Source: a virus (Duplodnaviria; Heunggongvirae; Uroviricota; Caudoviricetes). Taken from it: 64,000 nucleotides of DNA. This document shows, one piece after another, positions 22,836 to 29,400 of the stretch. The DNA is taken from positions 12,067 to 76,066 of IMG/VR virus record IMGVR_UViG_2563366840_000011; one strand, 5' to 3'. The first letter of the stretch is position 1; every line of letters starts with the position of its first letter. The notes beneath the pieces are model-generated. The model saw only the letters and a program-made list of their open reading frames with translations, made no database searches and had not been told where the DNA came from. The position numbers and the translations under genes were made by a program.

Positions 22836-22871
22836 GTTGAAAATAAAAACAAAAACCCGCCGAAGCGGGTT
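22836..22871 (-). terminator. Rho-independent terminator of the relB-relE-hokD operon
   Basis: Hairpin aacccgc-cgaa-gcgggtt at 22854-22871, followed on the minus strand by TTTTTGTTTTTATTTT. Confidence 0.7.
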
Positions 22872-22939
22872 AAGTGCGGGTGCGTTGAGGATGCCTGCCA
22901 CATCAGAGGTGGCGAGGGATTTCTCCCCCGCCGGGTCTC

Positions 22940-23095
22940 TTACTCCTCAGGTTCGTAAGCTGTGAAGACAGCGACCTCCGTCTGGCCGGTTCGGATTCGT
23001 ACCTCGCAGAGGTCTTTCCTCGTTACCAGTGCCGTCACTATGACGGTTAAACAGATGACGATCAGGGCGATTAACATCGCCTTTTGCTGCTTCAT
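22940..23095 (-). CDS. hokD: Hok-family membrane toxin HokD (RelF)
   Basis: Minus-strand ORF missed by the 60-aa cutoff: MKQQKAMLIALIVICLTVIVTALVTRKDLCEVRIRTGQTEVAVFTAYEPEE (51 aa). Confidence 0.85.
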   Translation of the reverse strand: MKQQKAMLIALIVICLTVIVTALVTRKDLCEVRIRTGQTEVAVFTAYEPEE

Positions 23096-23166
23096 AGCCT
23101 GCTTCTCCTGTCAACGCAAAGCAGAAGTGTCACCTTCGGTGCGAAACAGAGATGTCATGCTTTGGT

Positions 23167-23454
23167 TCAGAGAATGCGTTTGACCGCCTCGCTATATACT
23201 TCCGAGCGTTCTCTTTTCCCAACAGAAATCACGAAAACGACAACTTTCTCGTCTATAACCTGGTATACAAGGCGATAGCCTGAAGACCGGAGCTTAATCT
23301 TGTAACAATCAGGCATACCACGGAGCTTGTTTGCTTCAATCCGGGGTGACTCAAGTACTTCAACCAGCTTCTTTTTCAACTGTTCACGTACCGTCGAGCC
23401 CAGCTTTCGCCATTCCTTTAGTGCCCGCTCGTCAAAATCCAGAAAATACGCCAT
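23167..23454 (-). CDS. relE: RelE mRNA interferase toxin
   Basis: 95-aa ORF MAYFLDFDERALKEWRKLGSTVREQLKKKLVEVLESPRIEANKLRGMPDCYKIKLRSSGYRLVYQVIDEKVVVFVISVGKRE... Confidence 0.93.
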   Translation of the reverse strand: MAYFLDFDERALKEWRKLGSTVREQLKKKLVEVLESPRIEANKLRGMPDCYKIKLRSSGYRLVYQVIDEKVVVFVISVGKRERSEVYSEAVKRIL

Positions 23455-23693
23455 CAGAGTTCATCCAGCGTCACACGTACTGGCTTAGGATTACGAAGCC
23501 GTTCTTTCACTATCTCCACAAGTTCAGCATCTTCATCACTCAGGAGTGTCTGTTTGAACGGCAAGCGTTCATTGTCAGCGATATACTCGAGCATGAGACG
23601 AAGCGCTTCAGAAGGAGTTACACCCATTTTTTCAAGCGCGGCGTAAGAACGCGCTTTAAGTTCATCGTCAATACGCAGGTTAATGCTACCCAT
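23454..23693 (-). CDS. relB: RelB antitoxin
   Basis: 79-aa ORF MGSINLRIDDELKARSYAALEKMGVTPSEALRLMLEYIADNERLPFKQTLLSDEDAELVEIVKERLRNPKPVRVTLDEL; one-base overlap with relE. Confidence 0.93.
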   Translation of the reverse strand: MGSINLRIDDELKARSYAALEKMGVTPSEALRLMLEYIADNERLPFKQTLLSDEDAELVEIVKERLRNPKPVRVTLDEL

Positions 23694-23699
23694 GTCTTA

Positions 23700-23735
23700 C
23701 ACCTCTTGTAATTACAAATGTCATTACAAGTATCG
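23700..23735 (-). promoter_or_regulatory. relBE promoter/operator (relO-like TTGTAAT repeats)
   Basis: Minus strand reads CTTGTAATGACATTTGTAATTACAAGAGGTGTAAGAC immediately before the relB ATG. Confidence 0.75.
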
Positions 23736-24023
23736 CACTACAACATGCTTAGGGCAAGTCACGAAGGAAGTCAGAAAGTAGTCGTAAGAACGGTGATCAC
23801 TGTCCGCTTTGTGCCAGGAGCAGCCATTGCTAAGTCCATCCTGTATTGTGCAGGTCAGCTCGTTTTTAAAGAGTCCGGCCATCATCTTACTGGTACAGAC
23901 ACCATATACTTTGTGACGGTCAGGCTACATATGCACAACTCAACTTATTCATCTATTTTTTGCTTTAGCATGTCAGTGTTGCTTTCTCGTCGGCGGGTGA
24001 GCGGTGACCTGACCTGTCGATAA
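23718..24023 (+). CDS. ydfV: YdfV-like hypothetical ORF (possibly non-coding)
   Basis: 101-aa ORF between relB and flxA; no recognisable motif; assignment by size and position only. Confidence 0.3.
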   Translation: MSLQVSHYNMLRASHEGSQKVVVRTVITVRFVPGAAIAKSILYCAGQLVFKESGHHLTGTDTIYFVTVRLHMHNSTYSSIFCFSMSVLLSRRRVSGDLTCR

Positions 24024-24225
24024 AGGAACGTAACACGTTTTATGCAACACCCGCATGCGGCAGAAAATTATTGCCGAACGTTTACCCCTGTCAACAAGCT
24101 TTACTTTCTGAGGCGCGCCAGCCCGCGAGGAAAACAATCTGAACATCAAACAATTAATGACACAAGAAATACGATTAAAGATTTTTTTGTGCATGCCGAT
24201 AGTGCTTTTTTAAAAGGAGAAATCT

Positions 24226-24558
24226 ATGTCTGTCACAATTCAGGGAAATACCTCAACCGTTATTTCAAACAACTCCGCCCCGGAAGGAACATCAGAAATA
24301 GCCAAAATCACAAGACAAATTCAGGTGCTGACTGAAAAGCTTGGGAAAATCTCATCGGAAGAGGGGATGACGACACAGCAGAAAAAAGAAATGGCTGCAT
24401 TGGTACAGAAGCAAATTGAAAGCCTCTGGGCTCAACTGGAGCAGTTGTTAAGGCAGCAGGCAGAGAAAAAGAATGAAGACGCGACAGTTCAGCCTGATAA
24501 AAAAGAAGAGAAAAAAGACGATACAAATACCGCTGGCACCATTGATATTTACGTCTAA
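24226..24558 (+). CDS. flxA: FlxA-like protein
   Basis: 110-aa ORF MSVTIQGNTSTVISNNSAPEGTSEIAKITRQIQVLTEKLGKISSEEGMTTQQKKEMAALVQKQIESLWAQLEQLLRQQAEKKNE... Confidence 0.85.
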   Translation: MSVTIQGNTSTVISNNSAPEGTSEIAKITRQIQVLTEKLGKISSEEGMTTQQKKEMAALVQKQIESLWAQLEQLLRQQAEKKNEDATVQPDKKEEKKDDTNTAGTIDIYV

Positions 24559-24572
24559 GTGACAGCCGTATT

Positions 24573-24599
24573 GTGGCCCTCATCGGGCCACTTTTCGCC
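24573..24599 (+). terminator. Rho-independent terminator downstream of flxA
   Basis: Hairpin gtggccc-tcatc-gggccac at 24573-24591, followed by TTTTCGCC. Confidence 0.65.
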
Positions 24600-24994
24600 A
24601 TCAGCCTTTTCTTTAAAGACATATTATCTTTGTATCATTTCTGATAGTTAACATTACAAGATATAAGTAATGGACGCACTCCCAATTAGTCTATTTAAAT
24701 CGCCACGAGTTTAACTGACAACCCATGATCAATTATGAATTGCAACTATTTCTGTAGTCACTTTTGTGGGGACAGTCCACAAAACTGCCAACTTCCGCTT
24801 CTTGCTCTTAGCGGACATTAGCATAGGCTATTTACCATAACGCCTCATTACGCGCACCGCCCAGACTGACTCAGCGCGTTTCTGGCATATCCCCGGTAAA
24901 ACAAGTAACAAACCACCCGAAAATGAACACCAGAAACGCGACTTAAGAATCTACCCTATGAATGGATATGCACTCAACCGAATCGATCTTGGTT

Positions 24995-26308
24995 TCAATC
25001 TTTTTTATCGGGATCAGGCTTCTTTTTAGGTAACTTCGGGGGCTTAACTTGCTGATGACTTTGCGTTCGGCGCGTAAGCCAGGGATGGTCAGCTTTAGGT
25101 TTAACATAGTATTTTGAGCGTAAATCAATACGGGCATTATCCACTCGTTCATGGACACTCTTTTCATCATCCAGTGGTATAGGCTCCGGGCCATCAACAT
25201 ACTTTTCCCAGCCCAGCGCTTTCCCGTCATACAGAACGTTAATTTCACCGTCAAAGTTCTCGCATACAGTAACAACCGAATGCCTAAGTCGATATCCCCG
25301 GCCCTCACTGCGTACCTGAAACGCACTGCTTTTGTACTGGAAAGTGAGATTTTTAGACAGAACGCGCTTCGCCTGTAGGCTGAAGATATAACCCAGTTCC
25401 TCTTCAGAATGGTGCACATCAAGATGAGCATTATCAGTAGTACGAGGCGACGTAGCGAACCGGTTGTTATAGGCTTCAATAAAGGTCGGCAACCATGCAT
25501 TTGCTGTTTCAATATCACTGATATTCTGAAGCCGCATTTCTTTGACCAGCCTGTCCTGTAGTGTCTGATTGGCGCGCTCTACCCGCCCTTTTGCCTGCGG
25601 GCTGTTGGCATGGATTGGCTCGATGCCCAGTGTCTTTATCGCACGAGTGAACTGGGTCAGCTCACCTTCCCGCTCTGGGTTATTTACCCTGAATATACTG
25701 TGTCTATCAGAGTAGAGAGCGAGCGGTACGCCATGATCATTAAGGTAACCCCGGAGGGTTTCCATGTAAGCCCGGGTTGTTTCAGCAGGCACAAAACGCA
25801 ACGCCATCAACGCACTGGTGGCATCATCAATGAAAACGATCAGTGTACATCTGGGGCCTCGATTTTCAAACCAGTCATGAGGTGAGCCATCAATCTGGAT
25901 CAGTTCACCGTAAGATGGTCGTCGCATGCGGCGTTGATATATACGGGCAATTTTACGACGGCGTTCACGCCATAACCCCTCTTCTATCATCCACTTTCTG
26001 AGAGTTTCAACGGATAAAGATAAACCGTGTATCTCGCGCAATTTTTCGCACGCAAACGTAGGTCCAAAATCAGCGTAACGGCCTTTGAGGAGTGAAATTA
26101 CTGTTGCTCTGAATTCAGTAGAAAAGGAATTATTAGGACGCTTTCCACGTCGGTGGGAAACCAGACCAGAAGGCCCTTCATTTCTATACCGTTGCACCAG
26201 ACGTTTAACCTGCCGAATAGAAATGCCAATGCGTGCCGCAGCTTGTTCCTGAATAATCTGAAGTCGATGGAGTTCCTTATGACTCATCGTAACAGTCTCT
26301 TTGATCAT
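24995..26308 (-). CDS. DDE (integrase-core type) transposase of an unclassified IS element
   Basis: 437-aa ORF with N-terminal HTH-like region, then IQIDGSPHDWF..., LYSDRHSIF..., ANSPQAKGRVERANQTLQ (DDE/rve-like); element ends not resolved. Confidence 0.65.
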   Translation of the reverse strand: MIKETVTMSHKELHRLQIIQEQAAARIGISIRQVKRLVQRYRNEGPSGLVSHRRGKRPNNSFSTEFRATVISLLKGRYADFGPTFACEKLREIHGLSLSVETLRKWMIEEGLWRERRRKIARIYQRRMRRPSYGELIQIDGSPHDWFENRGPRCTLIVFIDDATSALMALRFVPAETTRAYMETLRGYLNDHGVPLALYSDRHSIFRVNNPEREGELTQFTRAIKTLGIEPIHANSPQAKGRVERANQTLQDRLVKEMRLQNISDIETANAWLPTFIEAYNNRFATSPRTTDNAHLDVHHSEEELGYIFSLQAKRVLSKNLTFQYKSSAFQVRSEGRGYRLRHSVVTVCENFDGEINVLYDGKALGWEKYVDGPEPIPLDDEKSVHERVDNARIDLRSKYYVKPKADHPWLTRRTQSHQQVKPPKLPKKKPDPDKKD

Positions 26309-26949
26309 GAAAAATCCCCCAGAGAATTGTCTGGGGACATTTTAGAATGGTTCAAAGGGGACATTACAGCTTGGTGTTAACAATAGCCTGCTTCTCCGTG
26401 CCTTTCGGCACGTAAGAGGCTAACCTACATGTGTCTAGCATGAAATTGGCCTCAGATTAATGTTAAGCGTCTTGCAGGACGCGTAATGTTAACTGGGGCT
26501 TTTCTCTATCTGCCGTTGGTGTCCATGCCCGAGGCAGATAGCCTCAAGCACCCGCAGTCATTCTACTTAACTAAGATTTCCCCGCAAACCGTTTTTGTCC
26601 AGCACAGTAAATATCCAACTAAACCAATGGAGTTCGCTGTATTTACCGCCAGTATTCAATGCACATGACCGCCATGAACACCCCTAAAAAAAGGGCATTT
26701 ATATATCCAAATATTAATATCAAAACATCAACTTTTTCCATATACCTTGCTGTGAAGATGATGGGCATACATGATGCGAACAACCAGAACGCAACAAACA
26801 AAAACTGCAATGCGTTTTTCATTATTCCTCCTACAATCAATGTGCAATTACATTTAAACACACCTCAATTTGGCCGGACATATAAATATCTAAACCAGAA
26901 AAAATCACTTACATAGCGTTACAAACTCTTTAGTCTAAAGGTTCATCGT

Positions 26950-27750
26950 AAAACATTCCCCATACTTATCAGTCCGTTCCGCGCCAGGTAGCTCATTGCC
27001 TTATCTGGCAACCTGTAATCAGGTTTCCGCTTTTTCAGTTGGCTGGTCGTTTAACCGACATAGTTAATCCATTAATCTAGTTGCCGGATGTTGGTGGATT
27101 TTCGCGTTTTAGTTGTTCATAAAAGTGCACAGCTTTAACCAGTTCTTCTGATGTAACTGGGACTGGTGAGGCAGTGAATAAGGCCTGAATTTGATAGTTC
27201 GGCCTGTCGTTACAATCCTCTTTTTTCGGTACATATTTCCAGTCACCAGACCACTACTTCCCCTGAAAGTCCGTAACGCCTTTTTTCACGTAGCGATATC
27301 GCCATGCCACTGGTTTTGCTTGCCCCGCCGTTTCATGCCCTTCCTGATAATTAATCTCGCTCATTCATCGCCCCACTCATCACAATATGCTTCGACCGGA
27401 GTTTTTCCCGCTTCATAGTCATCACGCTAGGATTCGACATCAGCAGCACTTCCACCGCGTAACTCACCATAGTCCATTAATAGTTCATCCCGCTCTTCAA
27501 AACTGATGTTATATTTAGCTGAACAAAAATCAGCCACTTTGTTCTTCCTCATCGTCTTTTATTTCGTGGTATGAGTAATTGCAGTAGTTAAAGAAAATTT
27601 CTTATGCTCCGTCATGAATTTCCTCAGGTGTTGCGTCATCGTCCACTTCGAATACATCCTCAAAATCTCCACCAGCTATTCCCGTTTCAATAATAATTTT
27701 GAACTTTCGCATTTCACTACCGCCCTTTCGGGCGGCCTCCTGATGTTCTG
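26950..27750 (-). pseudogene. Chain of frameshifted/interrupted small ORFs (decayed phage accessory genes)
   Basis: Minus-strand segments such as MRKFKIIIETGIAGGDFEDVFEVDDDATPEEIHDGA, ...KYNISFEERDELLMDYGELRGGSAADVES, ...AKPVAWRYRYVKKGVTDFQGK | WSGDWKYVPKKEDCNDRPNYQIQ..., separated by stops and frame changes. Confidence 0.4.
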
Positions 27751-28127
27751 AGGGTGCAGAAATCCATCCGGTTAAGGATTAAATTTTATTTACAGAACTG
27801 AATTTAATTATTCAGATATACGTATCTGTAGCCTTACGAATCTACTCACTGGATGCCTCTTTCATAAAAATAATCCAGTGGGTTTTATCGTTTTTTCCCC
27901 TGTTCGTTGACAGATAACAGGTTTTCTGTCTGTCAGTGCCAGAATCTGGCTTACCGGTATTTGCGTTTCATTCCATTAAAAAATCAGAACGCCGTGCGGC
28001 CTCAACACCCGAAAGGCTTCTTTAAATCTCTGTCGCGAATCATCACGCCAGGCATCTTTATTCAGCCGTCCATATTTCTTTCCCATCCAGGCGTTATCAC
28101 CAACACTCTCAAGGTAATGACTCCAAC

Positions 28128-28631
28128 TTATTGATAGTGTTTTATGTTCAGATAATGCCCGATGACTTTGTCATGCAGCTCCACCGATTTTGAGAACGAC
28201 AGCGACTTCCGTCCCAGCCGTGCCAGGTGCTGCCTCAGATTCAGGTTATGCCGCTCAATTCGCTGCGTATATCGCTTGCTGATTACGTGCAGCCTTCCCT
28301 TCAGGCGGGATTCATACAGCGGCCAGCCATCCGTCATCCATATCACCACGTCAAAGGGTGACAGCAGGCTCATAAGACGCCCCAGCGTCGCCATAGTGCG
28401 TTCACCGAATATGTGCGCAACAACCGTCTTCCGGAGCCTGTCATACGCGTAAAACAGCCAGCGCTGGCGCGATTTAGCCCCGACATAGCCCCACTGTTCG
28501 TCCATTTCCGCGCAGACGATGACGTCACTGCCCGGCTGTATGCGCGAGGTTACCGACTGCGGCCTGAGTTTTTTAAATGGCGGAAAATCGTGTTGAGGCC
28601 AACGCCCATAATGCGGGCGGTTGCCCGGCAT
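28128..28631 (-). CDS. insB: IS1 transposase InsB
   Basis: 167-aa [67 protein letters not shown]... Confidence 0.95.
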
Positions 28632-28825
28632 CCAACGCCATTCATGGCCATATCAATGATTTTCTGGTGCGTACCGGGTTGAGAAGCGGTGTAAGTGAAC
28701 TGCAGTTGCCATGTTTTACGGCAGTGAAAGCAGAGATAGCGCTGATGTCCGGCGGTGCTTTTGCCGTTACGCACCACCCCGTCAGTAGCTGAACAGGAGG
28801 GACAGCTGATAGAAACAGAAGCCAC
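28550..28825 (-). CDS. insA: IS1 protein InsA
   Basis: 91-aa [54 protein letters not shown]...; A-run frameshift site at about 28559-28566. Confidence 0.95.
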
Positions 28826-28880
28826 TGGAGCACCTCAAAAACACCATCATACACTAAATCAGTAAGTTGGCAGCATCACC

Positions 28881-29221
28881 CCTTTTTCAGTGAAAATCTC
28901 GCCAAGCGGTGTCTGGCTGTTATTAATCGCCCAGTCAGCCCCGCTCTCTTTCGCTTTTTCCAGTCGTTCATCAATGCGATCGGCAACAATCACATTTTTA
29001 ACGTTATAGACGCCTTTTAATACCTGAACGATCGTCAGGCCGATTGGACCGGCACCATAAACCAGAACGGTATCATTTTCAGTCGGTTGACCATGTCCGG
29101 TTACGTTAGCCGCAATGGTAAAAGGTTCGATCATTACCGCATATTGATCGGCCACTGCTTCAGGAATTTTCCACGCATTTTTTGCCGGAACCACGGCATA
29201 TTCACTGAAACCACCGTCAGC
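28881..29221 (-). pseudogene. rspB: Internal fragment of rspB-like zinc-dependent alcohol dehydrogenase gene, cut by the Mu-like prophage upstream and IS1 downstream
   Basis: Minus-strand frame DGGFSEYAVVPAKNAWKIPEAVADQYAVMIEPFTIAANVTGHGQPTENDTVLVYGAGPIGL...EIFTEKG runs into the IS1 end; continues the reading frame of the fragment at 63661-64000. Confidence 0.8.
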
Positions 29222-29400
29222 TGTGGGGAGGTGATCGTTTCTGCACTGTGAAGAATCTAGGGAAAAATGCCGGGAAGGCCGATGAATAGAGAGATTGCGT
29301 GGATTCTGTGATTTTGCACTGCAAAAAATAAAATGAGAAAAAATAGCTATTTTTGCGTTTAATTCTGCACTCGAATGAAAGGCTTTAGATCCTTTTTAAA
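29222..29400 (+). repeat. Mu-like left end with repeated candidate transposase-binding motifs
   Basis: GTTTCTGCACTGTGAAG, TTTTGCACTGCAAAAAA and TTCTGCACTCGAATGAAAG within the first ~170 bp; the same TTTTGCACTG-type motif recurs inverted at the right end. Confidence 0.6.

Follow-up and report, generated by a model that had tools for sequence, protein, structure and literature searches.

The window analysed here, by which we mean the whole 64,000-nucleotide stretch of DNA, carries between two insertion sequences the minus-strand remains of three small phage genes (hereafter A, B and C), preceded by a GC-rich hairpin and by the remains of a DNA methyltransferase gene interrupted by IS1. Beyond gene C lie a short A+T-rich open reading frame, the 5' leader of a hok/sok locus and the transposase end of the second insertion sequence (Table 1). 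The initial annotation of positions 26,950 to 27,750 had described protein-like minus-strand segments split by stops and frame changes. Three-frame translation of positions 26900-27800 recovered these segments, with one frame change among them, and they appear in the list of open reading frames as minus-strand pieces at 27602..27712, 27427..27552, 27254..27364 and 27109..27246. The accompanying reading as a decaying phage accessory region was borne out, since intact homologues of every segment exist in lambdoid phages or prophages and the lesions can be named base by base. In the translated search (tblastn) for intact ancestors, the segments are 79-90% identical to intact proteins of phages and prophages. 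Decay also reaches further upstream than the annotated stretch, into the methyltransferase (28112..27842), which is likewise broken. All four genes combine homology to intact families with disabling lesions.

Table 1. Features identified at the locus, in window coordinates.
Feature	Position	Strand	Description
Predicted ISEsa1-type transposition unit, 3,274 bp	23109..26382		relE, relB, ydfV, flxA, ydfW, 437-aa transposase; flanked by a 15-bp repeat
Orphan hok/sok 5' leader (mok start, sok region)	26382..26553	-	RF01794, 104.1 bits against a gathering score of 59, model positions 1-157
Candidate small membrane protein ORF	26643..26822	-	59 codons (72 from GTG 26861); AGGAGG upstream; AGGAGGAATAATG
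Pseudogene C	26943..27364	-	Ea22-like, phrog_660; two TAG and a frameshift; PGAP pseudogene with identical coordinates
Pseudogene B	27361..27537	-	58-codon acidic protein, phrog_519; ATG to GTG (27537), TGG to TAG at codon 37 (27429-27427)
Pseudogene A	27530..27712	-	DUF7167/phrog_1997, 60 codons; AAA to TAA at codon 37 (27604-27602)
AGGAGG and stem-loop	27720..27741	-	AGGAGG 27741..27736, CCGCCC-GAAA-GGGCGG 27735..27720, 7 nt upstream of the gene A ATG
Methyltransferase 3' remnant	27842..27975	-	Past the nonsense codon; one frameshift, mutated stop
Methyltransferase pseudogene, codons 73-118	27976..28112	-	Premature TAA 27978-27976; 5' part cut by IS1
IS1, 768 bp	28113..28880		Ends GGTAATGACTCC... 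and ...GGCAGCATCACC; InsA/InsB ORFs

Over its 1,713 bp, the DNA flanked by the two insertion sequences shares 99.9% identity with the Qin region in Escherichia coli ATCC 8739, W, IAI39, 042 and others. In a nucleotide search, at least 80% of this block (26400-28112) was present in 1,209 of 5,426 complete genomes; 508 records match it at 99% identity or more, and the pseudogene block is 99.9-100% identical across about 500 E. coli records. More than a thousand genomes of E. coli and Shigella hold it nearly unaltered. In ATCC 8739 the block is bordered on one side by ydfU-rem-hokD-relEB-ydfV-flxA-ydfW and an ISNCY transposase, and on the other by the methyltransferase, DUF977, O-like replication genes, a ydaT-like gene, dicC and dicA. 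The window retains the left side of this arrangement and the methyltransferase, and the dicC/dicA side is missing beyond IS1. On the evidence of nucleotide identity, gene order and pseudogene lesions, all in common with the Qin (Kim) prophage of ATCC 8739 and W, we assign the block to the early-right accessory region of a Qin-type cryptic lambdoid prophage, between the replication genes and hok/Q; the window differs from those prophages in having, beyond IS1, an oxidoreductase fragment and unrelated DNA in place of the dicC/dicA side. E. coli K-12 is without the block, presumably through a deletion between the ISNCY remnant (intK/ydfW) and ydfX. The location between replication genes and Q, the tightly overlapping small genes and the mosaic junctions are those of the accessory ('nin'/ea-type) blocks of lambdoid phages, with their ead and Ea22-like genes, from which the window differs in that A, B and C are inactivated.

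The pseudogene block remains 99.9-100% identical across distant phylogroups (ATCC 8739, W, 042, IAI39 and CE10), a similarity greater than expected for neutral DNA under vertical descent since the phylogroup split. Because simple ancient vertical descent leaves this near-identity unexplained, the comparison suggests that the Qin segment may have spread recently by recombination.

Gene A is a copy of a DUF7167 family gene. The segment matching intact proteins in tblastn spans 27712..27533, the comparison with phrog_1997 gives E = 8e-31, and an intact homologue covers the whole PF23768 model with a score of 54.9 bits (cut-off 24.4). Among IMG/VR loci fetched with the gene A protein, which also underlie the counts for B and C, 78 of 79 have an intact gene A of 60 aa, and dN/dS among intact copies is 0.06-0.13. 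The window copy stops at codon 37 and is thus unable to make the domain; among the relatives compared, this TAA is seen in the Qin block only. Gene B (27537..27364 in tblastn) is 79-83% identical to intact 58-aa proteins and matches phrog_519 with E = 4.5e-23; 70 of the 79 loci encode it in exactly 58 codons, and 75 in 56-61. Its TAG is also present in the induced phage vB_EcoM-606R7, and its start lesion is not disabling by itself, since GTG can act as a start codon. Both genes are intact in related phages and prophages whose DNA is approximately 90-94% identical. Substitutions on the Qin branch are mostly non-synonymous, in small counts: seven sites in A (two synonymous, four non-synonymous and one nonsense) and 18 in B (four synonymous changes, about ten changed codons including the conserved W16, now W16R, and one nonsense change).

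In gene C, two CAG codons have become TAG, at codon 37 (27256-27254) and codon 96 (27079-27077), and a frameshift lies near 27046-27052, after which the conserved tail runs on in another frame to a stop at 26943. The tblastn segments fall accordingly at 27364..27089 and 27047..26946: the N-terminal part has 82% identity with a phage protein of 119 aa, and the C-terminal 34 aa, read in the other frame, match proteins of ArgO145 and H19J at 68-71%, with the tail '...KLPDKAMxYLxRNGLIS..D.LR' common to gene C and these Ea22-like proteins. An intact 171-aa form is found in 24 of 80 IMG/VR loci, and most of the others carry 119-aa and other mosaic forms; the window copy is short of about 31 codons present in the 171-aa form. 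The first TAG of gene C is common to other prophages in which A and B are intact, and the gene has been broken independently, by different lesions, in several further prophages. Searches of Pfam, PHROGs, NCBIfam and PDB sequences placed A, B and C only in DUF or 'unknown function' families.

Public annotation already marks part of this chain. In ATCC 8739, PGAP labels the equivalent of window positions 26943-27364 'hypothetical protein; frameshifted; internal stop' and that of 27530-27712 'DUF7167 family protein; internal stop'. The decayed chain in itself is ordinary prophage gene decay of an already known kind, with nothing new in it.

The methyltransferase is a different case, as its Qin copy is annotated by RefSeq as an intact 118-aa 'class I SAM-dependent methyltransferase'. 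The segment at 27976..28112 is 98% identical to the 118-aa coding sequence of ATCC 8739 (tblastn), and the gene matches the phrog_954 DNA methyltransferase family with E = 6e-58. The RefSeq protein ends at the TAA, where intact relatives among the IMG/VR loci, 156-163 codons long, read through as '...GVLIFKWNETQ...' and continue for about 40 codons. In the three-frame translation of the 3' remnant, one frame reads WNETQIPVSQILALTDRKPVICQRTGE and another GKNDKTHWIIFMK, where intact relatives have KWNETQIPVRQILVLTDRKPVIGQRTGKNDKTHWIIFMK followed by the stop codon. Judged against these relatives, the protein annotated as intact is a pseudogene fragment.

In the window the gene has suffered further from IS1, which removes its first 72 codons. 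This IS1 is missing at the 28113 site both in Shigella flexneri SFBU0723, whose Qin block is otherwise alike, and in ATCC 8739. Its right flank matches an E. coli Zn-dependent oxidoreductase gene (a 365-bp fragment; region 28113-29225). Beyond this fragment the window continues into DNA that is rare in E. coli, encoding a helix-turn-helix protein and a 685-aa open reading frame. The rest of the Qin immunity region (dicC, dicA, dicF and dicB) is absent on the IS1 side, so that an IS1-mediated deletion or rearrangement is likely there.

The GC-rich hairpin reported ahead of the segments was found as the stem-loop listed in Table 1, which reads ccgccctttcgggcgg on the plus strand. It consists of six G-C pairs closed by a GAAA loop and forms when its 76-nt context is folded to minimum free energy (-24 kcal/mol, z = -2.3). 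The stem fills the interval between AGGAGG and the gene A start codon: the linear distance from AGGAGG to the ATG is 23 nt, which shortens to approximately 7 nt if the 16-nt stem forms, leaving TAGTGAA-ATG after it. No other Shine-Dalgarno-like sequence has the right spacing for gene A. The hairpin is kept in relatives, with a compensatory variant (CCACCC/GGGTGG) in seven loci, several wobble changes and some changes that break pairs. We conclude that the hairpin is a conserved part of the gene A translation-initiation region and not an intrinsic terminator.

Split Shine-Dalgarno sites bridged by a hairpin are a feature of phage T4 genes 38 and 25. The geometry at gene A, taken together with these T4 cases, points to the same arrangement, in which folding of the stem would bring AGGAGG to about 7 nt from the ATG. 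The likeness lies in an AGGAGG placed 23 nt from the start codon, with the gap filled by a 16-nt stem-loop that is conserved in relatives. The differences are that covariation is not significant here, showing no excess over shuffled controls on 16 distinct variants from 80 loci with one compensatory pair type, and that in five loci gene A is intact even though other sequence stands in place of the AGGAGG and the hairpin's 5' arm.

A transcription terminator or processing site parting the methyltransferase from the A-B-C genes would account for a stable stem of six G-C pairs, closed by a GAAA loop and lying between genes, and for the mosaic junctions between phage variants that fall within or beside the hairpin in 5 of 80 loci. 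We nevertheless consider this function unlikely. An intrinsic terminator is ruled out by the missing T tail: no T/U run follows the stem on either strand (the minus strand continues TAGTGAAATG and the plus strand CCTCCTGATG), and this hairpin is missing from the output of a terminator scan. The stem moreover sits between the conserved AGGAGG and the ATG that has no other well-spaced ribosome-binding sequence, and the covariation result speaks neither for nor against any structural role.

Just upstream (27742-27775, minus strand), a conserved CCCUC has two possible pairing partners. One is the AGGAGG of gene A, which would be sequestered, as the predicted fold has it; the other is a GAGGG further upstream, which is intact in relatives and reads GAUGG in the Qin block. 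This alternative pairing may represent alternative-structure control of gene A translation.

The homology to intact genes, the lesions, the synteny and the distribution among genomes make it very probable that positions 26943-27712 are a non-functional remnant of a Qin-type lambdoid prophage accessory block, presumably no longer expressed, for which relaxed selection offers a plausible cause. In the ancestral phage, a rightward early transcript would have run across four genes packed in a tight, overlapping operon: a small DNA methyltransferase, A (DUF7167, 60 aa), B (58 aa, acidic) and C (Ea22-like, 140-171 aa). Once the prophage had turned defective and was inherited with the chromosome, these four accessory genes would no longer have been needed; for A, B and C we infer this from their decay, and not from a known function. 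They would then have gathered nonsense mutations, a start-codon change, a frameshift and, lastly, the IS1 insertion. The open reading frame fragments would be what is left between the lesions, and relaxed selection would suffice to produce them with no special mechanism.

The first premature stops of A, B and C (27604-27602, 27429-27427 and 27256-27254) each fall at codon 37 of their gene. A common cause was ruled out by the differing distributions of the three lesions, that of A being restricted to Qin, that of B shared with vB_EcoM-606R7 and that of C shared with other prophages. The stops would thus have arisen at different times, and the common codon number looks like a coincidence.

That the fragments are still alive, with truncated reading frames expressed as micro-proteins or with the region kept as a functional RNA or regulatory element, appears very improbable. 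Candidates for such micro-proteins exist, namely the 36-aa N-terminal piece of A, whose region from Shine-Dalgarno through hairpin to ATG is intact in the window, and a 41-aa version of B beginning MRKNK..., for which an upstream ATG opens a 41-codon frame. An apparent sign of constraint would be the 100% identity of the block in hundreds of genomes of different phylogroups, but the flanking insertion-sequence remnant and the pseudogenised methyltransferase are equally identical, so that the identity reflects recent common descent of the whole block and not local constraint. The Qin-specific changes strike residues conserved in the family, such as W16R in B; sok aside, no Rfam family reaches its gathering score here; and PGAP does not call the fragments as genes. 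As for chance open frames in non-coding prophage DNA, which a lack of homology to any intact gene would have indicated and which pieces as short as 36-45 codons might recall, such frames being common in any sequence, tblastn leaves them practically no probability, as each segment matches intact, widely conserved phage or prophage genes at 79-90% protein identity, with Pfam and PHROG family matches and with gene order and overlapping start/stop junctions kept. Decay of a formerly intact operon therefore stays the preferred account of the chain.

Between gene C and the hok leader lies an A+T-rich patch (G+C 0.37, against 0.52 for the window) in which the initial annotation had placed a possibly intact 72-aa reading frame with two transmembrane segments at 26643-26861. 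The frame is indeed open and encodes two hydrophobic segments, but its internal ATG at 26822, which is preceded by a strong ribosome-binding site, AGGAGG, is a likelier start than the GTG at 26861, and the product would accordingly be 59 rather than 72 aa long. This 59-codon frame shows two Kyte-Doolittle peaks above 2.0 and is a candidate for a small membrane protein. It has no match in Pfam, PHROG or NCBIfam and is not called by PGAP; in a search of 5.8 billion proteins, homologues were found in E. coli and Shigella only. A 76%-identical copy keeps the frame with a dN/dS of 0.31, a value that comes from one diverged copy only and is equalled by the antisense shadow frame. An 85-aa reading frame on the plus strand (26659-26916), labelled 'hornerin' in two phage records, was rejected as a shadow of the minus-strand frame, as it has no Shine-Dalgarno sequence and its homology ends at the minus-strand ORF boundary.

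Further along, the hok leader is an orphan. Its RF01794 match stops exactly at the insertion-sequence end, and its alignment with the intact hok locus of phage vB_EcoS-640R1 extends to '...GGAGAAGCAGGCTAT'. The leader ends '...GGCTAT' against the insertion sequence, and no hok reading frame follows it directly; the hokD coding sequence that belongs with it is found at 23095..22943, at a distance of 3,274 bp. Aligned to an intact hok locus, the leader and the hokD region (23109..22852) form two halves that overlap by 16 nt, and a perfect 15-bp direct repeat, ATAGCCTGCTTCTCC, occurs at 23094-23108 and again at 26383-26397. The repeat takes in the Shine-Dalgarno sequence of hok and extends over the first two bases of its start codon.

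The segment between the two repeats bears the marks of a single IS1202-family transposition unit, with terminal inverted repeats, a target duplication and a transposase of the family. The terminal inverted repeats of the unit agree at 22 of 30 positions, where the best of 300 shuffles reached 19. Near the transposase stop no second inverted repeat was found within three mismatches; the partner was located at 23109, 1.7 kb further out. The transposase shares 98% identity with ISEsa1 copies on plasmids, and the exact insertion-sequence end is also present in S. flexneri SFBU0723. The initial annotation was right that an insertion sequence bounds the decayed chain on this side, but the element it had left unclassified can be classified: from its ends, duplication and transposase, it forms the transposase-bearing end of an ISEsa1-type transposon of 3.27 kb, with the relBE toxin-antitoxin pair, ydfV and flxA as cargo. 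The alignment to intact loci places the insertion of this unit exactly at the hok start codon, where it parts hokD from its mok/sok leader.

The transposase gene of the window (24995-26308, minus strand) has 437 codons, owing to a 27-bp in-frame deletion relative to the 446-codon plasmid copies. The corresponding ISNCY transposase of ATCC 8739 is annotated by PGAP as partial, with its C-terminus missing.

ISEsa1 has been described as a 1,609-bp element with terminal repeats matching at 15 of 22 positions and no detectable duplication, in a paper that also reports, for part of the IS1202 family, terminal repeats that are imperfect and target duplications that are long (Harmer and Hall, 2023, PMC10132070). 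The unit in the window resembles ISEsa1 (IS1202 family, formerly ISNCY) in its 98% transposase identity, and its terminal repeats and duplication recall those reported for that part of the family. It differs from the published element in that duplications of 14-16 bp bracket longer units, which end beyond relE. In carrying neighbouring genes along, these units are reminiscent of ISEcp1-style transposition units.

The relE-side outer end occurs together with relBE and repeats of 14-16 bp in three other contexts, in related units of 2.6 to 6.1 kb. A Kluyvera unit of 4,486 bp is flanked by a 14-bp duplication, and a 70%-identical hok lies immediately beyond the unit. An Enterobacter plasmid and Superficieibacter carry 6,092-bp units with a duplication of 15-16 bp; the cargo of these units includes a cation-diffusion transporter and a nested insertion sequence. 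A gut isolate carries a 2,574-bp unit at a target other than hok, with an imperfect 16-bp repeat. As the duplicated sequences differ, the related units appear to be independent insertions and offer comparative evidence for mobility.

The left end of ISEsa1 was compared across 18 contexts, the window included. In seven of them it abuts a full-length Rfam hok leader at the last position of the leader, and by sequence similarity about 12 of the 18 abut a hok leader. One context is reversed, its flank beginning GGAGAAGAAGGCCATG and continuing into a hok reading frame. Outside the window, in other Enterobacteriaceae, most left ends meet a hok leader at one and the same nucleotide, at the start codon, which suggests site-specific targeting of hok by ISEsa1. 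We consider it probable that ISEsa1-type elements are site-specific, hok-targeting, cargo-carrying transposons, whose true ends and duplication were perhaps missed in the 1,609-bp, 'no TSD' definition. No literature linking ISEsa1 to hok or describing a duplication was found in the searchable library.

Two plasmid contexts have the hok leader in common beyond position 16, while the 15 nt touching the insertion-sequence end are wholly different (GACCCATACATTTCC versus ATGGCCTTCTTCTCC). These differing 15 nt correspond exactly to the stretch that is duplicated on insertion.

For annotation, the intact ancestors of the decayed segments can now be named, part of the window is confirmed as dead prophage DNA, and a methyltransferase recorded as intact is revealed as a fragment. 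The unit carrying relBE and probably targeting hok matters more than the decayed chain. A 2019 review noted that relBE is integrated into hokD (PMC6379469). The unit described here would provide a transposition mechanism both for the placement of relBE before hokD (the 'relBEF operon') and for the separation of hokD from its mok/sok control region. If hok targeting holds true, one IS1202-family element would select the translation-start region of hok genes as its target.
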